DNA from: Candidatus Berkelbacteria bacterium
GTDB lineage: Bacteria; Patescibacteriota; UBA1384; XYA2-FULL-43-10; 1-14-0-10-43-13
DNA: 64,000 nt
Reading direction: 5' to 3'
Assembly (NCBI GenBank): GCA_037143235.1
Contig: JBAWZC010000001.1
Location: 1,132 to 65,131 of the forward strand
Shown here: in pieces, positions 2,944 to 32,046 of the stretch
Position numbering within the stretch: position 1 is the first letter of the stretch
Layout of the letters: every line of letters begins with the position of its first letter
Made by a program: the position numbers and the translations under genes
Notes under the pieces: generated by a model
What the model was told of the DNA's origin: nothing
The model's database searches: none
What the model saw: only the letters and a program-made list of their open reading frames with translations

Positions 2944-3744
2944 CTATTTCGGCAGCAACGACTTCATCTGCTTCGCAATGAAATTTGTCGCGTAGACAGG
3001 GTTCAGCCGATACAAAATATTCATAAAATTTGAATCCTTGCCAAGGAAAATCTGAAGTTTATTTTTCTCTATGCCAGCAATGATCTGTAGGGCTGCCTCA
3101 CTAGCCGGCAACATCTGAAAACTTTGCTTTTTCGAATCGCTCTCTGGCAATTTCATTGTTTTTAGGCCAGAGTTTTCGGTAATATTTGTCGCTGTCGCCC
3201 CTGGGAAGACCACTGAGACATGAACATTGGTCTCTTTCAGCTCGGCATAGAGCCCTTCAGTCATCAATTTCACGGCTGCCTTTGACGCCCCATAAACACT
3301 CTGACCAGGCACTGGCAAGAAACCGCCCATGCTTGAAACATTGACGAGATATGCCTCTGGTCGTTCCAACAAAGCTGGCAAAAAAGCTTTTACCATGTAC
3401 AAAGTACCAAAAAAATTGACATTCATGACTCTCTCGATCGCCTCATAGTCAAGATCATTCACTCTGACAAATGGTTGGATAATCCCAGCATTGTTGATGA
3501 CAACATCAACTTCCCCAACCTCACTTGCCAATTTTTCGACAGCAGTTTTGTCTGAAATATCCACCACATAAGTTGCGACGCGGTCACCTTTTTCGCCAAC
3601 TGATTCTTTCAACTGCTGCAAAGTCTCAGTATGAATATCCACAGCTACAATCTTGGCATCTTTTTCGAGTAAGGCCAGCACCAACGCTTTGCCGATACCA
3701 CTGCCCGCACCAGTGACCAGAACTGTCTTGTTATCCATTTTCAT
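2944..3744 (-). CDS. Short-chain dehydrogenase/reductase (SDR) family oxidoreductase
   Basis: N-terminal TGAGSGIG Rossmann motif and YGASK catalytic Tyr-x3-Lys; SD-like AAAGGAAA before the ATG; 266 aa. Confidence 0.85.
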   Translation of the reverse strand: MKMDNKTVLVTGAGSGIGKALVLALLEKDAKIVAVDIHTETLQQLKESVGEKGDRVATYVVDISDKTAVEKLASEVGEVDVVINNAGIIQPFVRVNDLDYEAIERVMNVNFFGTLYMVKAFLPALLERPEAYLVNVSSMGGFLPVPGQSVYGASKAAVKLMTEGLYAELKETNVHVSVVFPGATATNITENSGLKTMKLPESDSKKQSFQMLPASEAALQIIAGIEKNKLQIFLGKDSNFMNILYRLNPVYATNFIAKQMKSLLPK

Positions 3745-3960
3745 ATTATTTCCTTTTTTATTTAATATTATTGTAACAGATTGAGCAGCAGAAAAGCATC
3801 ATCCTGATTTGGGTCTAGCACTGGATTTATTTTTGAGTATCGCGAGAAGTTTAGGTGCTAAACGCAAACACCTCACATGTCTGAGGTGTTTGATAGACGG
3901 CTATCTTTGTAAAAAAGAATGTGGTATAAGTAAATCAGTCTACACACGGGAGGTGCTCCT

Positions 3961-4592: not shown

Positions 4593-6050
4593 ATGGATTC
4601 AGAAAAAAGCAAGTTCAAGATGTCATGGGAATCAATAAAGAGTAAATTTCTCGAACTGACTCCCAAAACAAAACTACTCATTGGTCTCGGTATATTTTTA
4701 TTAGTTGTATTGGTTGCATCGGGAATACTCGCCAAAAGCAAGATGTCTTCGCTTGCCAATAATACTGGAGAAATAGCAGCAGGAAATATCATTGCTGACG
4801 GTAAGTGCAGTTTGCCACAACAAGAAATCAAAGAATCTGCTTTTACGATCGGAGTCCCTGCGGGTTGGCTTTACGAGTTGAACAATGGCACAGTCTCCAT
4901 CATGAAAGATACCTCAAATCTAGAGGGTGCCTTTCTGTATACCGCTAAGCTAACCAAAGAGGATATTTCTGCCAAAGAGTTCCTGACTGCTTCTTCGGGA
5001 TTTTTTACTAAATCAGTTGCAGCAGAAGGCGGCACATTTACGGTAACGAATATCAAAGAAATTGATGGCGATGCAGAGGGTACAATCGTGGCGTCGCTTA
5101 ACAATACACCGATCGCAGGTGTATACAAAGTCGAAAAAGAGGGCAATTTCGTTACCCTGAGAGCATATTATGCACCTGAAAAAGATATTGAGACTTCAAG
5201 AAATAACCTAAAAGAAGTGGTCGGTTGCTTTAGTCGTACCACGACGCTCACAACTGATATCTTGACCGCAATCAAAGCCAAAGAAGAAGTGGCCAAAGCA
5301 ACTCCAAGCGGATTTACCAAATATACCGGAAAGTATTTTAGTCTTTCACTACCTTCGGGCTATAAAGTTACTGGCGAAAGTGATTCGGGTATCGATATTA
5401 GCCGAAATGATATGTCTGCCGGCTTTAGCTACGCTTACGTCACAGGGGCAAAAGGGCCATACACATCAGAATCATGGACAAGTTACGCACTGCCAAAATT
5501 TGCCAGCATTGGGAATCTATCGCTTGGATCAGGTCAAAATGTTCCATCAGAAATAGCAGGGATGAAAGTCCAAGAATTTCCTTTTACTGGAGTTTTGAGT
5601 GGCACGACAAATGTGAAAGGAAAAGTGACAACTGGTGTCATCAACACAACTGATTTCGGGATGGGCTCCAGCACCTCGGCTTTCTGGGCGATACAGGTCG
5701 CGAAACCAGAAGTCTTTGGCAGCGTCTCGTCAATTTTGCAGACAATTCAGGATTCAGTCACTATCATTGATATTGGCGACATCAGAAAAAAGGCCATGTT
5801 GCCGCCAAATCGTCCAATAGAGTCTTCTGGCAGCTCGATCCCCTCAAAAAATCCGGGAGCATCAGTCAGCGATGAATCAAGCAACGACTGGGCTGACGCG
5901 ATGCATGGCTACCAAACCATGGAGTCTCCAACCACTGGGGAAAAATTCGATGTTCCTCTGAACTCATGGAACGAAACTGGTCCAGATGGACCGGGACAAT
6001 ATATAAAGTTGCCAAATGGTGACACTCAAAAACTCCAAGAAGTGGAGTAA
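4593..6050 (+). CDS. Hypothetical membrane-anchored extracytoplasmic protein (485 aa)
   Basis: SD-like GGGAGGGA, N-terminal TM anchor (LLIGLGIFLLVVLVASGIL), Ser/Thr/Gly-rich body; no recognisable conserved motifs. Confidence 0.55.
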   Translation: MDSEKSKFKMSWESIKSKFLELTPKTKLLIGLGIFLLVVLVASGILAKSKMSSLANNTGEIAAGNIIADGKCSLPQQEIKESAFTIGVPAGWLYELNNGTVSIMKDTSNLEGAFLYTAKLTKEDISAKEFLTASSGFFTKSVAAEGGTFTVTNIKEIDGDAEGTIVASLNNTPIAGVYKVEKEGNFVTLRAYYAPEKDIETSRNNLKEVVGCFSRTTTLTTDILTAIKAKEEVAKATPSGFTKYTGKYFSLSLPSGYKVTGESDSGIDISRNDMSAGFSYAYVTGAKGPYTSESWTSYALPKFASIGNLSLGSGQNVPSEIAGMKVQEFPFTGVLSGTTNVKGKVTTGVINTTDFGMGSSTSAFWAIQVAKPEVFGSVSSILQTIQDSVTIIDIGDIRKKAMLPPNRPIESSGSSIPSKNPGASVSDESSNDWADAMHGYQTMESPTTGEKFDVPLNSWNETGPDGPGQYIKLPNGDTQKLQEVE

Positions 6051-6606: not shown

Positions 6607-6886
6607 GATGATTTTGTTAAGATTTTAGTAATCCAAAAAAGATACAATTCTATATAAAACAGCCATTAAACCTATTAATTTCTCGCAAAGTCAGGCAGCC
6701 GTAATTAAAAAGACTAGTCCGGGATCAATCAGCTTTGTCACTAGAAATGATCATGGTCATAAAAAACACATCACAAAAGTGATGTGTTTTTTATGGTGGA
6801 ACGCACTGTTGCAAGTCAGAAATATAATCTTAAACAGTGAAAAGATGATTTATATTCCGAAGATGAGGATTAGAGAATTTAATTGA

Positions 6887-7071
6887 TTATTTTTTCTTAG
6901 ATAACTTTGTTAGGGGCTCTCTTAATATATAGGCCGAAAGTGATGCCAACACTAACGCTATTATTAGTTCCAACCACCACACTGGTTTTAAGTAATCATG
7001 AATCAAAGTCATAATGACAAAAAAGGCGGCAAAATACCAAAATATCTTTCCGCTTAGCACTTTGAATTTCA
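6887..7071 (-). CDS. Small hypothetical membrane protein (61 aa)
   Basis: Internal Met of the track ORF 6887..7228, whose 5' part overlaps tRNA-Ala. Strong SD-like GGAGGGAG immediately upstream of the ATG at 7069-7071; two TM segments. Confidence 0.4.
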
Positions 7072-7167
7072 TACTCCCTCCATTATTTATTGTTTGTATT
7101 ATACCAAACAGTTCCAACCTATTAAATAGGTATAATAAAAAGACTAGTCTAGGACTAATCTTTTTAT

Positions 7168-7243
7168 TGGTGGACCCAACAGGATTCGAACCTGCGACAT
7201 CCTCGTTGCAAACGAGGCGCTCTACCAACTGAGCTATGGGCCC
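7168..7243 (-). tRNA. tRNA-Ala (anticodon TGC)
   Basis: Reverse complement GGGCCCATAGCTCAGTTGGTAGAGCGCCTCGTTTGCAACGAGGATGTCGCAGGTTCGAATCCTGTTGGGTCCACCA. Cloverleaf with G3:U70 Ala identity pair, anticodon loop TTTGCAA, encoded CCA, and an intrinsic terminator hairpin right after the 3' end. Confidence 0.9.
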
Positions 7244-11219: not shown

Positions 11220-11420
11220 AAAATCCTCCGATATTTCACCATGAATATTACAATAATAGTATAGATGATTTACTCTAATTAGAAAAGAAAAGACAGTAGA
11301 CCAAAGCCATTTCAATCTATTTATATCAAACTAGCAACTTAAGGTTGAATTATAGAACGAAATTTGGTATATTTTTACCGTTGCAGATTTATTTATTCTT
11401 TGACAGCAAGAAATAAATTT

Positions 11421-11493
11421 GGGCGCGTAGCTCAGTTGGTTACCTGCCCGCAATGCTTATGCATAGCGTATGCAGGCGGGGAGCACGTCACTG
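11421..11493 (+). pseudogene. Partial 5'-half copy of tRNA-Ile (nt 1-22 and nt 23-35), interrupted by a 38-nt hairpin insert in the D-loop and truncated in the anticodon loop
   Basis: GGGCGCGTAGCTCAGTTGGTTA (11421-11442) and GAGCACGTCACTG (11481-11493) are identical to the 5' part of the intact tRNA-Ile 90 nt downstream. Identity ends after anticodon-loop CTG. Confidence 0.6.
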
Positions 11494-11582: not shown

Positions 11583-11659
11583 GGGCGCGTAGCTCAGTTG
11601 GTTAGAGCACGTCACTGATAATGACGGGGTCGGAGATTCGAGTTCTCCCGCGCCCACCA
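11583..11659 (+). tRNA. tRNA-Ile (anticodon GAT)
   Basis: GGGCGCGTAGCTCAGTTGGTTAGAGCACGTCACTGATAATGACGGGGTCGGAGATTCGAGTTCTCCCGCGCCCACCA. Canonical cloverleaf, anticodon loop CTGATAA, encoded CCA. Confidence 0.9.
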
Positions 11660-11675
11660 GTAAGATAGTAATTGC

Positions 11676-11721
11676 GAGCACTAATGACGGGGTCGGAGAT
11701 TCGAGTTCTCCCGCGCCCACC
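11676..11721 (+). pseudogene. 3'-half copy of tRNA-Ile (anticodon-loop TAATGACGG through CCA), 16 nt downstream of the intact gene
   Basis: TAATGACGGGGTCGGAGATTCGAGTTCTCCCGCGCCCACCA is identical to tRNA-Ile nt 36-77. An intrinsic terminator (AAACGCTTTAAATAGCGTTTTTTTG) follows at about 11737-11762. Confidence 0.6.
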
Positions 11722-11817
11722 AAACAAACGAAACAAACGCTTTAAATAGCGTTTTTTTGTTTGTCAAAAATATGAGTTCGCGGTAAGATTAAAAAATAAG
11801 CAATTAATATCGAAAAA

Positions 11818-13125: not shown

Positions 13126-13151
13126 TTGGAAAATTAGCCCTGCCACCCGTT

Positions 13152-13530
13152 TGTCATTGCGAGCTATTGGGTTTTCCAAAGCGCGGCAATCTATCATGCT
13201 CTACCATGAAAAACTATTACACCTACATTTTATCTAACTATGATAATTCTGTTCTGTATATTGGGATTACCAATAATTTAGTTCGTAGAACACACGAGCA
13301 CAAAAACAATTTAATCGAGAGTTTTTCATCCAAATACAAAGTCCACAAATTAGTTTATTTCGAGGAAACCAATGACGCAAACTCTGCAATTTCACGAGAA
13401 AGACAATTGAAAGCTGGTAGCAGACAGAAAAAACTCGATTTAATAGCAAAAAACAATCCTGAATTTAATGATTTGTATCCAGAACTATTATAATGATAGA
13501 TTGCCGCGTCGCAGACTCCTCGCAATGACA
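13152..13530. mobile_element. Palindrome-flanked GIY-YIG cassette, divergent family member: 45-bp left IR, GIY-YIG gene, 37-bp right IR
   Basis: Left IR 13152-13196 tgtcattgcgagctattgggttttccaaagcgcggcaatctatca and right IR 13494-13530 tgatagattgccgcgtcgcagactcctcgcaatgaca. The terminal 12-14 nt are exact reverse complements (tgtcattgcgag/ctcgcaatgaca; gcggcaatctatca/tgatagattgccgc). Confidence 0.7.
13206..13493 (+). CDS. GIY-YIG nuclease family protein (small URI-domain/YhbQ-like, 95 aa)
   Basis: YTYILSNYDNSVLYIGITNNLVRRTHEHK matches the GIY...YIG motif with the conserved Arg and Glu. The ORF occupies the interval between the two IRs almost exactly; the TTG track start lies inside the left IR. 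Confidence 0.75.
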   Translation: MKNYYTYILSNYDNSVLYIGITNNLVRRTHEHKNNLIESFSSKYKVHKLVYFEETNDANSAISRERQLKAGSRQKKLDLIAKNNPEFNDLYPELL

Positions 13531-13563
13531 GACATTAGGCAGCCATTGCAACAATCCCCTGCT

Positions 13564-13688
13564 TGTCATTGCGAGCTATTGGGTTTTCCAAAGCGTGGCA
13601 ATCTATCATATCCTTTTTTTACTATTGCGGCCCAACCACGGTATCAAAGCACGATAGATTGCCGCGTCGCAGACTCCTCGCAATGACA
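13564..13688. repeat. Empty miniature copy of the same element (MITE-like): left IR and right IR separated by only 44 bp
   Basis: 13564-13608 is near-identical to the left IR at 13152 (one mismatch) and 13653-13688 is identical to the right IR at 13494. No ORF lies between them. Confidence 0.7.
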
Positions 13689-21216: not shown

Positions 21217-21321
21217 AATAAATTCCTTTATTCCCCCTCCTAAGATAGGAGGGGCTAGGGGTGGTATGACTGAATTGTTTTTCACAATTTATTCTCTTCT
21301 TTTGTCGCGCCAATCCTTTTT

Positions 21322-21678
21322 TGTCATTCCCGCGCAGGCGGGAATCCACCAATAGCCACCTCCTAATTTTTATTCAAGTAAGTCTTTCCACCCAGGATTG
21401 CTTTGCTCAATCAACTTTATTTTCCAAACCCTATTCCACTTTTTAAGACGCTTTTCTCTAAGAATTGCCTCAGTCACATCAGATGTTTCTTCGAAGTAAA
21501 CAAGTTTTTTGGCTCCATATTTTTCAGAAAAACCGTTTGTAATTTTATCTTTATGCTCATTCGTTCGCTTCTCTAAATTTGATGTCACCCCCACATACAA
21601 TGTTCCATTCAAACGACTTGCCAATATGTATACAAAGTATTTTTTCATTTGTGGATTCCCGCCTGCGCGGGAATGACA
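21322..21678. mobile_element. Palindrome-flanked GIY-YIG cassette: 28-bp perfect IRs (tgtcattcccgcgcaggcgggaatccac at 21322-21349; reverse complement at 21651-21678)
   Basis: The IRs are exact reverse complements and each is itself a hairpin (ttcccgcg/cgcgggaa). The GIY-YIG ORF fills the space between them. Confidence 0.75.
21370..21648 (-). CDS. GIY-YIG nuclease family protein (92 aa)
   Basis: YFVYILASRLNGTLYVGVTSNLEKRTNEHK GIY-YIG motif; about 80% identical to the copy at 28464-28742 and about 45% to that at 13206-13493. Confidence 0.75.
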   Translation of the reverse strand: MKKYFVYILASRLNGTLYVGVTSNLEKRTNEHKDKITNGFSEKYGAKKLVYFEETSDVTEAILREKRLKKWNRVWKIKLIEQSNPGWKDLLE

Positions 21679-21702
21679 TATATTTATCCACTAATTAGAA
21701 AT

Positions 21703-22515
21703 TTAGGAATTCTGTAGCAGTTTAATCCTCTCTTCAACAACTTTTCCCACTGCATCCATGCCCTCTTTATTTGCATCACGATAATCTTCATCACTCGAAG
21801 ATTCAATCGCTTCAGCAAAAGCATGTTTCAATTTCGTATCAACATTGAACTTTGTAACACCACAACCTATTGCTGCGCGAATATCTTCATCGCACAATCC
21901 AGACGAGCCATGCATGACGAGTGGAATACTCACTTTTTCTGATATTAATTTCAGTAATTTTAAATCAACTTTTTCACCCTCTGGCGCGCCATGCTCATTA
22001 CCTACAGAGACAGCTACTGAATCAACGCCAGTCAGTTCAACAAATTTAGCAACTTGATCTGGATCACTCATCACCGCCGTACCCGAGATTTGACCACCTT
22101 CCTCTTTGCCGATAACCCCAATCTCGGCCTCGACGGTAACGCCTCTTTCGTGAGCATATTCGACGACCTTTTTAGTCTCAGCAACGTTTTCATCAAAAGA
22201 TAATTTTGAACCATCGAACATGACTGACTTATAACCCATGTCGATACATCTTTTGACTGTTTCAAAATCCTTAGCATGATCAAGATGAATCGCCGCATTG
22301 ATTCCAGAACTATCGATTTCATCTCTAATAATATCAAATAGCGTTTGTGGCCCAGCATACTCCAAAGCGCTCGGTGTCGTTTGAATCAGGATAGTCGCAT
22401 CCAATTTCTTAGCCGCGCTACAAATTGCTTTCGTCACCTCAAGATTATTGGTATTGAAAGCCCCGATAGCACATCTGGTTTCGCGGGCTTTATTTAATTC
22501 TTCTTTTACATTCAT
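21703..22515 (-). CDS. fba: Fructose-bisphosphate aldolase, class II
   Basis: Class II FBA/tagatose-bisphosphate aldolase motifs (AIGAFN, LHLDHA, HGSSG). Start set at ATG 22515 (AAGGAAAA SD). The track's 5' extension is translation of a solo TGTCAT-family repeat. Confidence 0.9.
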   Translation of the reverse strand: MNVKEELNKARETRCAIGAFNTNNLEVTKAICSAAKKLDATILIQTTPSALEYAGPQTLFDIIRDEIDSSGINAAIHLDHAKDFETVKRCIDMGYKSVMFDGSKLSFDENVAETKKVVEYAHERGVTVEAEIGVIGKEEGGQISGTAVMSDPDQVAKFVELTGVDSVAVSVGNEHGAPEGEKVDLKLLKLISEKVSIPLVMHGSSGLCDEDIRAAIGCGVTKFNVDTKLKHAFAEAIESSSDEDYRDANKEGMDAVGKVVEERIKLLQNS

Positions 22516-22524
22516 ATTTTCCTT

Positions 22525-22570
22525 TGTCATTGCGAGCACTGAACTTATCGAAGGGTGCGGCAAGGTATCA
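22525..22570. repeat. Solo TGTCAT-family element (tgtcattgcgagcactgaacttatcgaagggtgcggcaaggtatca) just upstream of fba
   Basis: Same termini (tgtcattgcgag...gcggcaa..tatca) as the left IR of the 13152 cassette. Confidence 0.55.
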
Positions 22571-22572
22571 TA

Positions 22573-22791
22573 TTATTTTTTTCGAAACAACTTCAATACT
22601 ATTGCTGTCAGCCCCCAAACTACAAAAAATGAGACGAAGGCAGCGAAGTAGAAAAAGATGAAATATATTTGCCAAGGCGCACCACTTCTGCCACTATCCA
22701 GTAAAACGCAGATCAATGAATACAAGACAATTACCGCTGGAAGAATACTTGCAACAACAAGACTTATTTTCTGGTTGCTCCACTTTTTCAT
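22573..22791 (-). CDS. Small hypothetical membrane protein (72 aa)
   Basis: Two TM helices; no homology recognised. Confidence 0.35.
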   Translation of the reverse strand: MKKWSNQKISLVVASILPAVIVLYSLICVLLDSGRSGAPWQIYFIFFYFAAFVSFFVVWGLTAIVLKLFRKK

Positions 22792-22858: not shown

Positions 22859-23065
22859 TTATTTCTTTCTTCCAATTGACCACATAAAATTATTAATCTT
22901 GCGAGCAAATAAAAGGTAAAGGATTCCAGCGATCATCACTAGCCAACCCCAATCATTTCCAGACATCAACAACGCTATTGATCCAACAATAACTATGACA
23001 CCAAAAATATACTCCTCTATTAAGGTTCCTTTTTTCGCAAATTTACTAAACTTTTCACTAGCCAC
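22859..23065 (-). CDS. Small hypothetical membrane protein (68 aa)
   Basis: Two TM helices; no homology recognised. Confidence 0.35.
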   Translation of the reverse strand: MASEKFSKFAKKGTLIEEYIFGVIVIVGSIALLMSGNDWGWLVMIAGILYLLFARKINNFMWSIGRKK

Positions 23066-23087
23066 ATTCCTCCTTGTAAATATTTAA

Positions 23088-23160
23088 TTATTTTAATACA
23101 TCAACCCCTGGCAGCTCTTTCCCTGCCAAAAACTCCAGTGCTGCTCCACCACCAGATATT
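23088..23160 (-). repeat. Diverged duplicate of the pgk 3' end (repeat R3), still encoding ISGGGAALEFLAGKELPGVDVLK-stop
   Basis: About 85% nucleotide identity to the native pgk terminus at 24349-24421. The frame-preserved translation is nearly identical to the Pgk C-terminus. Confidence 0.7.
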
Positions 23161-24003
23161 TTATTTATCGTCCAATAATATATTATCCTGTTTGGCAACA
23201 AATTTATACTTACTGACTACCAGTCTGCCGGTTTTTGACTCTATTTCTTTTCTGGCATGACCGGCAATAGTCCCGCCTTCCTTTGCCACTTGACGGTTTT
23301 CTGGTAAGTCTTTGGGCTTACGCTTCTCTGATATTTCTGTGGTCGCTGTTTCAGCCAACATATTCAAGACCAATTCCAGATTGGTCATATTGTCGCGTAA
23401 ATTTTCTTTTTTCAGATTTTTATAATTCTTGTATTCTCGTGTACCCATTCCCGCCCAAGCCAGAGTGATATCGTCAGTTAAAATGGCAAATTCATCGCCC
23501 CTTTTCACGCCGCGTTTTTCCCATTCATCGGTCAGGGCCTTTCGGATTTCAATACTTTTTAGTCGTTGATTTATCCAGCTCTCGCTGTAACCTTTTTTCA
23601 GATATGTATTTAACGCTCGGTTGATCGCTAGCTCCGGATCATGGGTCTCTTCGATCCGCTCGTATCCAACTCGTGCCAACCAGAGCTTAAAAGGCTCGGC
23701 ATTTGGCGAAGGAACCGATTGAATCAAGCGAAGTAATACTTCTGTATCAGCGACATCAGTTAGGCGCATCTTGCCATCCATAGCAAACATCTTCAAACCG
23801 TGACAATTTGTCACGGTTTCATTCCCGCCCTCTTTCTTCATCCTCTCTTTTAGCTTTCTCCAATACGCAAGAGGATCGACACTTCTCGTCAATGCCGCGA
23901 CCACATCAACAACCGAAAAATACCACTTTTCCTCTTTCTCGTCCCAGTGGCGACGAATTTTATTACCTTCAAAAATTGCAATCTTTTTAACTTTTTTACT
24001 CAT
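23161..24003 (-). CDS. DinD-like DNA-damage-inducible protein (N-terminal BRO-N/KilA-N-like domain)
   Basis: The N-terminus (KIRRHWDEKEEKWYFSVVDVVAALT) resembles BRO-N. The C-terminal half (FAILTDDITLAWAGMG...KNLKKENLRDNMTNLELVLNMLAETATTEI) parallels E. coli DinD (FAIFQNHGYQGLYGG...KGLKKNQKILDHMGSTELAANLFRATQTEE). Confidence 0.6.
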   Translation of the reverse strand: MSKKVKKIAIFEGNKIRRHWDEKEEKWYFSVVDVVAALTRSVDPLAYWRKLKERMKKEGGNETVTNCHGLKMFAMDGKMRLTDVADTEVLLRLIQSVPSPNAEPFKLWLARVGYERIEETHDPELAINRALNTYLKKGYSESWINQRLKSIEIRKALTDEWEKRGVKRGDEFAILTDDITLAWAGMGTREYKNYKNLKKENLRDNMTNLELVLNMLAETATTEISEKRKPKDLPENRQVAKEGGTIAGHARKEIESKTGRLVVSKYKFVAKQDNILLDDK

Positions 24004-24010
24004 TCCGTTA

Positions 24011-24088
24011 CTATTTTAATACTTCAATGCCTGGTAAAGTTTTGTCAGCTAAGAGCTCTAGTGCTGCCCCACCACCGGTCACAGAGAA
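24011..24088 (-). repeat. Diverged duplicate of the pgk 3' end (repeat R2), encoding FSVTGGGAALELLADKTLPGIEVLK-stop
   Basis: Protein-level conservation of the Pgk C-terminus with many nucleotide substitutions relative to the native end. Confidence 0.7.
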
Positions 24089-24097
24089 ATAAAAAGT

Positions 24098-24301
24098 TTA
24101 ATTAAGTTTCCGTCTGCCGACTTCGAATAATAATACTCCAACGGCTAATGCAACAATACCCCAAAGAACACTATTATTGACAATTGATCTATCAACGAAA
24201 ATCATCATCAAACCAAAAACGAAAATAATTACTCCTCCAACCATTGTCTGAACATGCATAGACCTTCGCGGATCTTGAACCTTCTTAACGTTTTTTGCCA
24301 T
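24098..24301 (-). CDS. Small hypothetical membrane protein (67 aa)
   Basis: SD-like AGGAGAGGG; two TM helices. It lies between pgk-end repeats R1 and R2. Confidence 0.4.
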   Translation of the reverse strand: MAKNVKKVQDPRRSMHVQTMVGGVIIFVFGLMMIFVDRSIVNNSVLWGIVALAVGVLLFEVGRRKLN

Positions 24302-24348
24302 CCCTCTCCTGTTTTCTTTATGAACTTTATGACTTTATAAACTTTTAA

Positions 24349-25491
24349 CTATTGCAATACTTCGATCCCTGGCAGCTCTTTTCCGGCCAAAAACTCTAGC
24401 GCTGCCCCACCACCGGTTGAGATAAAGGTAATATTTTTGTCCAAGCCCTGTGACTTGACGAAACCAACTGTATCACCGCCAGCAATCACTGTTTCGGCGT
24501 TAATATTGCTCAACGCCTCAGCAACCACCCTTGAGCCATTGGCATATTCGTTATCTTCAGTATAACCCAAATTACCGTTCCAAAATACTGTTTTTACCCC
24601 TGAAATAATATCGACATACTTTTTCTGCGTCTCGGCACCAATATCAAGTATCTTGCCATTATTTCTGACAAAGTCTGTCGGCAAAACTATCTTCTCTCCA
24701 TACTTTTTAAGTATTTCCTTACACCTCTCGACCATTGTCTCATCATAAACCGAATCACCAATATTTAGACCGCTTGCTTTCAAAAAGGTATTAGCTACTC
24801 CTCCGCCCAACAAGATTTTGTCGACTTTGGGTGCTAAAAATTCGATCACGCCAGCTTTGTCCTCTATTTTCACGCCCCCAATGATCAAAATGAACGGCAA
24901 TTTTGGTTCCGTCATCACTTTAGTAAGTTCAGAAATTTCTTTTTGAATCAACAAACCCGCATAACCTGGCAAAAATTTTGTAATTGCGTGCACCGAAGCA
25001 TTGGCACGATGTGAGACGGCAAAAGCATCATTTATATAAATATCCTGCCCAGCCGCAAGCTCTTTGGCATATTCCTCGTCGTCTTTTTCTTCGCCAGAGT
25101 TGAATCTTAAATTTTCAAGCAACATCACTCTCTCATTCAATTCAAACCTTTCAGCTGGTCCATCAAATTTTTTATCAATATTTAACTTTTCAGCCAATCT
25201 GTTCGCAACTGGCCACAAACTAAATTCCGAATTATTTTTCCGCGTCGGCCTGCCCGCCTCATTTTGCGAAGCAATTTGGGCGGGCTTACCTAGATGAGAC
25301 CCAATAGTGATCTTGCTTGCTCCATTTTCCAACAAATAATTAATCGTCGGTAAAGCCGCATCAATACGATTATCATCCGCAATACTGTTTTCTGTTTTCT
25401 GTGTGCTGTTCACTGAATTCATCGGCACATTGAAATCCACGCGCAGGAAGATATTTTTACCTGCAATTTCCGCTTGCTCAATTGTTTTCAT
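24349..25491 (-). CDS. pgk: Phosphoglycerate kinase
   Basis: Canonical PGK motifs (RVDFNVPM, GGGA...LE at the C-terminus). Start at ATG 25489-25491 with SD-like GGGAAGTGG; the track start was GTG. Confidence 0.9.
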   Translation of the reverse strand: MKTIEQAEIAGKNIFLRVDFNVPMNSVNSTQKTENSIADDNRIDAALPTINYLLENGASKITIGSHLGKPAQIASQNEAGRPTRKNNSEFSLWPVANRLAEKLNIDKKFDGPAERFELNERVMLLENLRFNSGEEKDDEEYAKELAAGQDIYINDAFAVSHRANASVHAITKFLPGYAGLLIQKEISELTKVMTEPKLPFILIIGGVKIEDKAGVIEFLAPKVDKILLGGGVANTFLKASGLNIGDSVYDETMVERCKEILKKYGEKIVLPTDFVRNNGKILDIGAETQKKYVDIISGVKTVFWNGNLGYTEDNEYANGSRVVAEALSNINAETVIAGGDTVGFVKSQGLDKNITFISTGGGAALEFLAGKELPGIEVLQ

Positions 25492-25603
25492 AATTACCAC
25501 TTCCCGTAGACCACGCTTTAGCGTGTTTACAAACTAAAGTTTGAGCTACACTATATATTAACAATATTTTACCACAACTGCCTCGTCATGATACAATAAT
25601 ATC

Positions 25604-28339: not shown

Positions 28340-28418
28340 ATTTACCTCCATCAGTTAATTTTCATTGATGGACTATCTGCCATCACCCAATTTACTTTGT
28401 CATTCCCGCACCCTTATT

Positions 28419-28773
28419 TGTCATTCCCGCGCAGGCGGGAATCCACAAAAAGTCAACTCATAATCATTCAGTCAAATCTTTCCATCCAGGATTATTTTCT
28501 TCAATCAATCTTATTTTCCAAATTCTATTCCATTTTTTAAGACGTTTTTCTCGAAGTGATGCCTCGTGAATATCTGTCGTTTCTTCAAAATAGACAAGTT
28601 TGCTTACTCCGTATTTCTCAGAAAAACCATCAGCGATTTTATCTCGGTGTTCGGTTGTCCGTTTCTCTAAATTTGATGTTACTCCGGTATACAATGTTCC
28701 GTTGAAATGGCTCGCCAGTATGTAAACATAATATTTTTTCATTTTGTGGATTCCCGCCTGCGCGGGAATGACA
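28419..28773. mobile_element. Palindrome-flanked GIY-YIG cassette with the same 28-bp IRs as the 21322 copy (28419-28446 and 28746-28773), plus an adjacent partial IR at 28398-28413
   Basis: IRs are identical to those of the 21322-21678 element. Inserted between gap and tpiA. Confidence 0.75.
28464..28742 (-). CDS. GIY-YIG nuclease family protein (92 aa)
   Basis: YYVYILASHFNGTLYTGVTSNLEKRTTEHR; paralog of the 21370-21648 gene. Confidence 0.75.
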   Translation of the reverse strand: MKKYYVYILASHFNGTLYTGVTSNLEKRTTEHRDKIADGFSEKYGVSKLVYFEETTDIHEASLREKRLKKWNRIWKIRLIEENNPGWKDLTE

Positions 28774-28783
28774 GAAATCTCAT

Positions 28784-30615: not shown

Positions 30616-32046
30616 TTAATCAAAAAGATCCTTTACCTGTTTTTTTCGATGATAGGATATAGCAAAACGATGCGCCTCATCCCTTGCTCGTATCAAGACT
30701 CTTTGCAATGTTTGGTTTGTTTTAATAAATACCGCAATTTTATCATCAGAAAATCGCAAATCATTTCTTTTTCTCTCGGCGCCCTTTGCAATTGCCACCA
30801 CGGGGATGTCTTTGCCAAGCTCCGTAAGCAATAACTTCACAATATTCAACTGCGATTGTCCCCCGTCCAAAACGATCAAATCAGGCAGTGGCCAATCATT
30901 TTTCATTCTTCGCTCAATCACATCTCTCATCCAATAAATATCACCTACTCGCTTGTCATCCCCAGATTCACTATTTTTTGTCATCCCCGATCCAGTCGGG
31001 GATCCATTAATAGCTTTCCCCACTTCACTAAAGTTACGAGGGGCAGGGTGGATTCCCGCCTCCGCGGGAATGACAGAAACGGGAAACTGTTTTCCGTTTT
31101 CTGTTTTCTGTAAACTAAACATCCGATAATCGTCCTTGCTTGCTTTTCCGTCTACAAAAACGACCATCGAACCAACGACATTTTTTCCAGATATATTCGA
31201 AATATCATAACACTCGATTCTCTTGAAGCCAGCGACTGATTGATCGACCAATTCATCCGACAAGCCCACCCCCACATCTCGAAGGTGCTGTAGCGCTCTG
31301 ATCTTGTCCCGAACCAACGCTGCCTCCTCGTATTTTGATTTGGCACTTAGTTTCGCCATCTCCTTTTCAAGGTCGGCAAAAAGCTTCTGTTTTTTGTTTT
31401 GCAAATATTTGACCAAATAGCCAATGTTCTTCTGGTAATCTTTTTCGTCAGTAAAATCGGCGCAAGGCGCACTACAAACTCGGATCTCGCCGAAGATACA
31501 TGGCCTTTTTTGCCTTTGCTGAGACGCAAACTTTGTCTTGGAACAGTCACGATATGGAAAGATCTTGCGTAGATATCTCAAAGCATTTTTCAGCAAATCG
31601 CCTGAAGGATAAGGGCCAAAATATATCGCCGATCGATCAGAAAAATCCACATTTCTCGATCGTACCAGTTCAACCATCGAGAACGATCCAGCTCGGTCAA
31701 CTTGAGATTTAGAATTTAAAATTCTACGAGTTATCTTTATCACCAAAAAGCTTTTGTCGTCCTTGGCTCTGATATTATATTTCGGCTTAATCTTGTTGAT
31801 CAGCTCTGCCTCGAGCAAAATTGCTTCAATCTCAGAATCAGTCTCAACGGTCACGACCTTGTCGGCTAGCTCCACCATCTGAATGATGCCAACCCCTCTG
31901 TCTAGTGTACTCAAAAAATATTGACGGATGCGATTGCGCAAGTTCTTTGCTTTGCCGATATACAAAATCTTCCCTTTGACATCCAGAAACTTATAGACGC
32001 CAGGAGAACTTGAGATTCCACTAAAATTTATCGAACTTTTATTCAT
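30616..32046 (-). CDS. uvrC: Excinuclease ABC subunit C (UvrC), short form ending right after RDEAHRFAISYHRKK (no C-terminal (HhH)2 domain), with an in-frame insertion of about 50 aa
   Basis: N-terminal GIY-YIG (GVYKFLD...ILYIGKAKNLRNRIRQYF), a Cys cluster, UVR domain, RNase-H-like ECYDISN...YRMF and DIYWMRDVIERR...LIVLDGGQSQL...RDEAHRFA. The TGTCAT-family hairpin plus heptamer repeats at 30943-31095 are translated in-frame (…IPAEAGIHPAPRNF…). Confidence 0.8.
   Translation of the reverse strand: MNKSSINFSGISSSPGVYKFLDVKGKILYIGKAKNLRNRIRQYFLSTLDRGVGIIQMVELADKVVTVETDSEIEAILLEAELINKIKPKYNIRAKDDKSFLVIKITRRILNSKSQVDRAGSFSMVELVRSRNVDFSDRSAIYFGPYPSGDLLKNALRYLRKIFPYRDCSKTKFASQQRQKRPCIFGEIRVCSAPCADFTDEKDYQKNIGYLVKYLQNKKQKLFADLEKEMAKLSAKSKYEEAALVRDKIRALQHLRDVGVGLSDELVDQSVAGFKRIECYDISNISGKNVVGSMVVFVDGKASKDDYRMFSLQKTENGKQFPVSVIPAEAGIHPAPRNFSEVGKAINGSPTGSGMTKNSESGDDKRVGDIYWMRDVIERRMKNDWPLPDLIVLDGGQSQLNIVKLLLTELGKDIPVVAIAKGAERKRNDLRFSDDKIAVFIKTNQTLQRVLIRARDEAHRFAISYHRKKQVKDLFD
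30943..31095. repeat. TGTCAT-family palindromic elements plus a (CTGTTTT)n heptamer repeat embedded in-frame in uvrC
   Basis: Contains cttgtcatccccagattcac, ttgtcatccccgatccagtcggggatcca (stem ccccga/tcgggg), gtggattcccgcctccgcgggaatgaca (the 28-bp IR with one substitution) and ctgttttccgttttctgttttctg. Confidence 0.65.

Follow-up and report, generated by a model that had tools for sequence, protein, structure and literature searches.

This study concerns the 3' end of pgk, the gene of phosphoglycerate kinase, in a contig of a Candidatus Berkelbacteria bacterium, of which we have analyzed a stretch of 64,000 nucleotides (nt) that is termed the window throughout the text. At this locus, the last ~70 nt of pgk are present three times in direct orientation, with the terminus of the intact gene followed by two displaced copies, to which we refer as echoes, and with a single open reading frame (ORF) placed between consecutive copies. 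One of these ORFs encodes a small membrane protein and the other a Bro-N domain protein that matches a candidate defence family. We propose that both genes have entered the locus as one-gene cassettes by homology-driven or trans-assisted insertion, each accompanied by a surrogate end of pgk, a reading to which we assign a probability of about 0.5. All features of the region between pgk and fba, the gene of a class II aldolase, are located on the minus strand of the window, whose GC content is 42%, and the Pgk and Bro proteins encoded there have identical counterparts among the entries of one Candidatus Berkelbacteria metagenome-assembled genome (MAG). Queries for an exact record of either protein returned none.

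The pgk gene of the window (24349-25500) is intact. Its product, which has a length of 383 residues as listed and of 380 residues in the database entry, aligns to Pfam PF00162 (E=1e-108) over profile positions 1-379 of 379 and is thus a full-length phosphoglycerate kinase, with an intact C-terminal TGGGA...LPG motif and a C-terminus that agrees with that of its relatives. This working terminus (E1, 24349-24417, 69 nt, TGGGAALEFLAGKELPGIEVLQ-stop) is followed by the two displaced copies E2 (24011-24079, TGGGAALELLADKTLPGIEVLK-stop) and E3 (23088-23156, SGGGAALEFLAGKELPGVDVLK-stop). About 17 nt past the stop codon, which extend E1 to 24330-24417, are common to E1 and E3 and not to E2. The existence of three such copies had been claimed in an earlier note on this DNA, which had also proposed, as a test, that they should align to pgk beyond random expectation, and both points are borne out by formal alignment. 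A repeat search identified one direct family of three copies of 80 nt (23074-23153, 23997-24076 and 24335-24414, with 69-83% identity to the reference copy), MAFFT aligned the coding parts of E1, E2 and E3 without gaps, and a self-BLAST of the 64-kb window returned E-values of 6e-16 for E1-E3, 9e-8 for E1-E2 and 4.5e-5 for E2-E3. Between the T/S codon and the stop, a stretch of 69 nt, the pairwise identities amount to 81%, 77% and 72%. All copies are in the Pgk frame with the stop codon at the same place, and their translations, STGGGAALEFLAGKELPGIEVLQ, VTGGGAALELLADKTLPGIEVLK and ISGGGAALEFLAGKELPGVDVLK, each closed by a stop, show the close agreement described in the same note and are all ordinary Pgk C-termini of the clade (TGGGAALEFLAGxxLPGIEALx). 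The starts of E2 and E3 fall within ~12 nt of the same position, GGTGGTGG. The phenomenon is confined to pgk, which is the only one among the 52 ORFs of at least 120 residues in the window with C-terminal echoes downstream, and a search for an older copy of its end between E3 and fba found nothing above shuffled controls.

The pattern of divergence bears on the origin of the copies. Counted at first, second and third codon positions, the differences amount to 3, 0 and 10 between E1 and E3, to 4, 2 and 10 between E1 and E2 and to 5, 2 and 12 between E2 and E3, which corresponds to ~43% of third positions compared to ~7% of first and second positions. For E1 and E3, where 13 of the 69 positions differ, the share of third positions exceeds one third with P=0.0016. 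If the copies were local duplicates, with free drift of the displaced one and none but synonymous changes in the functional one, ~43.5% of the differences would be expected at third positions, in a model whose rates were assumed and not fitted. Pooled with an analogous echo at the locus L055, the comparison of E1 and E3 shows 23 of 29 differences at this position (P=9e-5 against that expectation). The displaced copies thus diverged mostly as parts of working pgk genes, which supports their assignment as orthologous pgk ends that have diverged under coding selection instead of decaying local duplicates. It also agrees with the proposal of mostly synonymous substitutions and of an origin in the pgk genes of other genomes.

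A comparison of the interval between pgk and fba in related genomes, which the note had called for, reveals a variable gene content. In Berkelbacteria, pgk is part of the gene order pgk-fba-pfkB-(x)-tig-clpP. The interval is empty in the relatives L171 and L172, where 22 nt separate the stop of pgk from the start of fba, and it is differently filled elsewhere: by a 23S_rRNA_IVP gene in L167, whose Pgk is closest to that of the window (66% identity), by a PDDEXK_3 gene bounded by inverted repeats in L168, by an ORF of 35 residues in L169, and by four small genes in the window, where a GIY-YIG element is additionally found between fba and pfkB. The interval is therefore an insertion site. Echoes of pgk were found in none of the relatives L167, L168, L169, L171 and L172, and a second Pgk terminus was present in 0 of 80 unrelated pgk loci, mostly from organisms outside the candidate phyla radiation, which were collected by a profile scan for Pgk in metagenomes. 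Among the copies in the window, E1 is nearest to the pgk end of L167, with 55 of 69 identical positions compared to 49 and 44 for the other two. Scans of genome and metagenome contigs with Pgk peptides retrieved no close relative, the nearest Pgk being 66% identical. As separate observations in these genomes, the PDDEXK_3 gene of L168 (3830-4330), together with its inverted repeats, has been inserted at the stop codon of pgk, whose product is thereby extended by the residues NESTN, a tail that is also found in another database Pgk, and in L167 23S_rRNA_IVP genes are located both after pgk (3399-3767) and between the genes gap and tpi (6817-7206).

A second locus combines the same two genes in a distant Berkelbacterium (L008), whose Pgk is 42% and whose Bro protein is 81% identical to that of the window. 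There, the Bro gene starts 8 nt after pgk, and its ORF terminates with a repeat of the final 17 nt of pgk, which include the stop. This arrangement is stable, as it was seen in 15 contigs that originate from several samples. The architecture of a pgk end, 8 nt and Bro is the same as the one of E2, 7 nt and Bro in the window, which would be predicted if a surrogate end travels with its cargo.

The cargo of both cassettes consists of single ORFs in close proximity to the repeats. The first cassette carries TM67 (24098-24301), a protein of 67 residues with two predicted transmembrane (TM) helices and an orphan, which found no family in Pfam, NCBIfam, PHROG or PADLOC and only itself in a search for homologues. 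E2 begins ~10 nt past the stop of TM67 and ends 7 nt ahead of the ATG of the Bro gene in the second cassette (23161-24003), which encodes a protein of 280 residues with a conserved helical C-terminal half, and E3 begins directly at the end of the stop codon of this gene. The distances between gene and repeat are thus 0-7 nt for Bro and 10-47 nt for TM67. The Bro protein is a member of the Pfam family Bro-N (PF02498, 37.4 bits compared to a cut-off of 25.6, residues 16-110), which is a DNA-binding fold. It matches PHROG 15286 and, in a full-length alignment, the PADLOC profile PDC-S13 (PDLC04920, E=1.8e-131, with residues 5-272 aligned to profile positions 4-270 of 286), which makes it a member of this candidate single-gene defence family. 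The membrane protein and the Bro-N domain had been recognized correctly in the earlier note, whereas the resemblance to DinD does not extend to membership: at 22.9 bits the protein is far below the equivalog cut-off of 242 of NF008573, with only residues 143-256 aligned, and its C-terminal half retains a distant similarity to DinD (E=4.7e-5). Equally, the label of a phage-associated family is not supported, as Bro was found in 4 of 50,697 records of phage collections and in seven IMG/VR contigs at 48-65% identity, and we have rejected phages as its main vehicle.

The Bro family is old, very strongly constrained and more conserved than Pgk. The database contains >8000 homologues. Among species-representative genomes, >550 homologues were detected, with amino-acid identities of 68-84%. 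The latter span many lineages of Patescibacteria in addition to MAGs labeled as Gammaproteobacteria, Nitrospinota, Omnitrophota, Bacteroidales and Methanosarcinaceae, where the labels rest on binning. In a set of 71 Bro loci, synonymous sites are saturated and the GC content follows that of the host (r = 0.78). The constraint on the family is unusually strong. An AlphaFold model shows the Bro-N domain with a predicted local distance difference test (pLDDT) score of ~80-89 and the C-terminal half below 50. A sequence search of the PDB found no relative of the protein, and in the literature we have found nothing on PDC-S13 or on Bro-N together with Patescibacteria. The idea that the C-terminal tails of Bro proteins derive from their targets was considered and rejected as a general rule, since the tails share a basic KNAK..KKLK pattern and the ORF ends inside an echo only in L008.

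Echoes are not restricted to the window. In a comparison of the 500 nt upstream with the 700 nt downstream of Bro genes, 10 of ~70 loci contained direct repeats that scored higher than the 99th percentile of controls made from mismatched pairs, and several of the high-scoring repeats are the ends of genes adjoining Bro. Relative to ~470 other genes of the same loci, echoes are enriched at Bro with an odds ratio of ~12 (P=0.005). In L055, a 62-nt echo of a convergent gene of 563 residues encodes the same peptide with its stop, and third positions account for 13 of the 16 differences over the 69-nt terminus and for 10 of 11 within the repeat. Other copies are identical or nearly so, such as the one of a convergent class IV aminotransferase in L029 (35 of 35 nt) and that of the end of the upstream gene in L085 (59 of 61 nt), to which the terminus in L008 (16 of 17 nt) can be added. 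L046 contains three copies of a 178-nt echo of a membrane protein of 822 residues in the tandem arrangement gene-E-RhuM-E-Bro-E, and in L023 a whole gene of 132 residues is duplicated around Bro and a gene of 209 residues. In L052, L060 and L070, it is a promoter or start region instead of a gene end that is repeated, and the homology between L052 and L060 stops at the repeats, leaving Bro and its two flanking repeats as the only shared unit. Across the family, the echoes range from 17 to ~400 nt and stem from different target genes, with cargo in either orientation.

Several of these loci show additional features. A perfect hairpin, TTCCTAAAGG-TTC-CCTTTAGGAA, is present in four copies at the cassette boundaries of L046, a member of the Parcubacteria (2482-2503, 2550-2573, 3881-3902 and 4834-4855), where it overlaps the stop codon of the target gene and the adjacent cassette encodes the RhuM-family protein. 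The promoter-like repeats around Bro in L052 (1013-1043, 1893-1925 and 2137-2167) and L060 (3955-3985 and 4836-4865) are direct, have a length of 31 nt and end with TATAAT, with surrounding genes that differ between both loci. L023 contains a split Bro pseudogene and the duplicated gene, which is cupin-like (410-950, 993-1391 and 3269-3667), and L009 two Bro paralogues on the same strand at a distance of 1.1 kb (1991-2839).

We have found no enzyme that would account for the movement of the cassettes. Domain searches detected no recombinase in the cassette genes or in ten further ORFs of the window, which agrees with its previously noted absence, and there was no strong match to a recombinase among 41 neighbors of echo-positive Bro loci. 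The cassettes contain no transposase domain and their ends no inverted repeats. With duplicated segments of 17 to ~400 nt across loci, the arrangement does not correspond to a transposon or insertion sequence with target-site duplication, and with repeats that are coding sequence and no integrase found, it does not correspond to an array of integron cassettes either. The three copies share no conserved palindrome and have no match in Rfam. Homing-type gene conversion, which had been offered as an option, has no counterpart in a detectable nuclease domain, as Bro-N was the only domain found in the Bro protein, whose C-terminal half is modeled with low confidence. The gaps between pgk and fba contain no terminator-like sites and promoter-like matches at chance level. 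In light of this lack of a terminator or a clear promoter of their own, the cassettes are probably transcribed by read-through from pgk towards fba.

Between E3 and fba, the locus contains the two further tiny membrane-protein genes that had already been listed, an ORF of 68 residues with two TM segments and weak similarity to TM67 (22859-23065) and an ORF of 72 residues (22573-22791), both without flanking echo. The former could be either an older insertion or a piece of the original region downstream of pgk. The following fba (21703-22563, Pfam PF01116, E=3.8e-87) is syntenic in L167-L172, and the TTG listed as its start probably precedes the true one. Beyond this interval, the window contains traces of other small elements. 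A 92-residue GIY-YIG gene with 32-nt inverted repeats (TGTCATTCCCGCGCAGGCGGGAATCC) resides between fba and pfkB (21315-21682), and a second copy with 79% identity adjoins the gap gene (28412-28777), with a solo repeat at 31047-31083, so that both elements are neighbors of glycolytic genes. Another GIY-YIG gene (13151-13530) has inverted repeats of a different family (GTCATTGCGAGCTATTGGG...). A further pair of these repeats comes next, which is empty and resembles a miniature inverted-repeat transposable element (13563-13688), and a related remnant (GTCATTGCGAGCACT) is located just upstream of fba (22529-22547). Finally, the 3' 41 nt of the tRNA-Ile(GAT) gene are repeated exactly 22 nt downstream, with a partial copy resembling the 5' half upstream (11387-11442, 11583-11659 and 11682-11722), which is an attachment (att)-type footprint left at a tRNA gene by integration and loss.

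In the mechanism that we propose, recombination within the conserved terminal ~70 nt of pgk would have split the junction between pgk and fba on two occasions, with each incoming DNA comprising the complete pgk terminus of another Berkelbacteria lineage and one accessory gene. Starting from a native state in which pgk ended with E3, we infer the first arrival to have been E2 with the Bro-N/PDC-S13 gene and the second E1 with TM67. In each case, a single crossover of the Campbell or ends-in type would regenerate an intact pgk and push the old terminus downstream as an untranslated echo, leaving one copy of the donor and one of the recipient type. Recombination between echoes could, in turn, release a cassette in circular form and leave pgk restored. 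The crossover itself may result from general homology-dependent recombination between conserved sequences of short length, or from the action of a relaxed enzyme provided in trans, whereas the different target genes and the variable length of the echoes argue against one dedicated site-specific integrase. Thus, the part of the earlier note that envisaged serial insertion with a surrogate gene end is upheld by the variable interval, the excess of third-position differences and the architecture shared with L008. As to the integrative elements that it envisaged, the units are no obvious remnants of larger ones, given that they are essentially bare ORFs at a distance of 0-7 nt from the repeats, and a mobilization by a single site-specific integrase fits poorly with echoes of such varied length and genes. 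Several observations weigh against our proposal. The shared start of E2 and E3 at GGTGGTGG resembles a fixed att boundary, as would not be expected from free homologous recombination, and 70 nt at ~80% identity are a poor substrate for RecA. About 85% of the Bro loci have no flanking repeat, and the first arrival of a Bro gene at a new target gene is left without explanation. The copy attached to pgk is also the one that is most similar to the nearest relative, and the order could thus be the reverse, with the cargo preceding its echo. Moreover, the window derives from a single MAG contig, and with no genome above 66% Pgk identity there is neither strain-level evidence for the presence and absence of the cassettes nor a donor.

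Foremost among the alternatives is an accretion of elements as known for cis-mobilizable elements (CIMEs), where non-autonomous units with an att site overlapping the 3' end of pgk would have been inserted in tandem by a tyrosine or serine integrase that is either encoded elsewhere or visiting, an explanation that we regard as possible if doubtful. Its topology is the same, with tandem elements, direct repeats that include the gene end and no recombinase inside (PMC7563491), and it is concordant with the common 5' boundary of E2 and E3. The att-type duplication of the tRNA-Ile gene in the same genome suggests that integrase-type events have probably occurred there. Yet, no integrase was found among the tested ORFs of the window or the 41 neighbors of echo-positive Bro loci. 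CIMEs originate from the deletion of larger elements, which contrasts with bare ORFs bordering the repeats almost without spacer, and echoes that vary in length between 17 and ~400 nt at differing targets are not the product of a single site-specific enzyme. The Bro-N/PDC-S13 protein could instead itself mobilize a selfish element that consists of its gene alone, either homing-like or as an unconventional integrase. It would then favor insertion beside gene ends and generate, or select for, the long duplications at its flanks. The clustering of echo-flanked cassettes at Bro genes (with an odds ratio of ~12), the restriction of the unit common to L052 and L060 to Bro and its two repeats, the patchy distribution of the family in many phyla and contexts and an extremely conserved C-terminal half with no assigned function next to a DNA-binding fold could all be understood on this basis. 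We nevertheless judge it unlikely, since domain searches of the protein, whose C-terminal half is modeled at pLDDT <50, revealed neither a nuclease nor a recombinase or transposase domain, the same echoes surround cassettes with other cargo (TM67, RhuM) and each locus has a single Bro gene, with no other copy in the window. Moreover, saturated synonymous sites and a host-like GC content characterize Bro genes as old residents under purifying selection, unlike a selfish element that is currently spreading.

Two further explanations would dispense with foreign DNA or with the locus altogether. A purely local origin, by in-lineage tandem duplication of the pgk end through slippage or a long target-site duplication followed by drift, finds a parallel in the identical or nearly identical echoes of L029, L085 and L008, which look as expected from a fresh duplication. 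For the window it is very improbable in light of the retained frame and stop, the lack of insertions and deletions, differences from E1 that are mostly at third positions and the unrelated genes between the copies. The contrast between ~43% of third and ~7% of first and second positions requires coding selection for most of the divergence. Finally, an artefact of assembly or binning, in which reads of several Berkelbacteria strains from a mixed community would have been joined at the conserved end of pgk, might be suspected from a window that resides in a single MAG contig and from copies that resemble the pgk ends of different lineages. We consider it the most remote of the alternatives: at 72-81% identity the copies are too diverged for an assembler to collapse or chain, only ~70 nt of pgk and no longer segments are repeated, the junction of pgk and Bro in L008 recurs in 15 contigs from several samples and similar echo arrays are found in independent assemblies.

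The insertion of cassettes with a surrogate gene end would, if it applies, offer one concrete route by which Patescibacteria, organisms with tiny genomes whose acquisition of accessory and defence genes is poorly understood and for which, to our knowledge, few classical mobile elements have been described, could obtain such genes. On this route, one-gene cassettes would be added behind an essential gene of glycolysis, which stays undamaged, as each brings a replacement of the gene end. That the signature recurs in several phyla around one extremely conserved candidate defence gene suggests a general and possibly enzyme-independent movement of small genes between diverged genomes. As a more speculative extension, which we advance tentatively and with considerable reservation, PDC-S13 Bro-N genes and neighboring one-gene cassettes such as RhuM and small membrane proteins might constitute undescribed recombinase-less mobile cassettes that spread between genomes via short conserved gene termini or promoters, with a surrogate copy sparing the target. 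Conserved gene ends such as the Pgk C-terminus would in that case serve as landing pads across Patescibacteria and other phyla. In practical terms, the in-frame echo of a gene terminus provides a simple sequence signature that can be searched in any genome collection.

The locus shares properties with several known systems and is distinguished from each of them. In streptococci, tandem arrays of CIMEs, integrative and conjugative elements (ICEs) as well as integrative and mobilizable ones (IMEs) are found at the 3' ends of fda, rpsI and rpmG, with CIMEs being decay products of ICEs and IMEs that have short att repeats of fixed length, a size of 1.2-13 kb, or 130-220 bp in case of microCIMEs, and no recombinase (PMC7563491). 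The tandem placement of units at the 3' end of an intact conserved gene and direct repeats containing the gene end are common to both. The cassettes described here are, in contrast, bare single ORFs of 0.3-0.9 kb in Patescibacteria with no remnants of an ICE or IME backbone and no cognate integrase found. Their repeats are ~70-90 nt of diverged coding sequence, and one cargo family is associated with echoes of variable length from other genes. The composite islands of staphylococcal cassette chromosomes (SCC, SCCmec) likewise arise by successive insertions where a housekeeping gene ends, in units bounded by repeats with the gene terminus. SCC elements are large and accumulate at the 3' end of rlmH (orfX) by the action of Ccr serine recombinases at a short conserved core, with some units devoid of a recombinase and dependent on its supply in trans. 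None of the large size, Ccr or the short core was observed in the window locus. With integron cassettes, the locus shares compact promoterless one-gene units in a co-oriented array past a fixed point and the inclusion of defence-type cargo, but there is no IntI, attI or attC-type palindrome, and the delimiter is the coding end of the upstream gene. The Bro protein resembles DinD of E. coli and Bro-N antirepressor-like phage proteins in its N-terminal Bro-N domain and a distant similarity of the C-terminal part, whereas it is far below the equivalog cut-off, belongs to PDC-S13 and is rare in phage genomes. With respect to mechanism, parallels are provided by insertion-duplication through a single crossover with circular DNA, termed Campbell integration, and by homology-facilitated illegitimate recombination of bacteria with natural transformation, for both of which laboratory constructs and experiments on transformation are the main source of knowledge. 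Both predict precisely a duplicated homology of variable length that flanks the insert with one donor-like and one recipient-like copy, and we know of no description of them as a recurrent natural path for a specific family of defence genes at gene termini. Compared to these systems, the novel aspects of the locus are the host group, the minimal units of one ORF, the long and diverged coding echoes and the tie to a conserved candidate defence family that extends across phyla.

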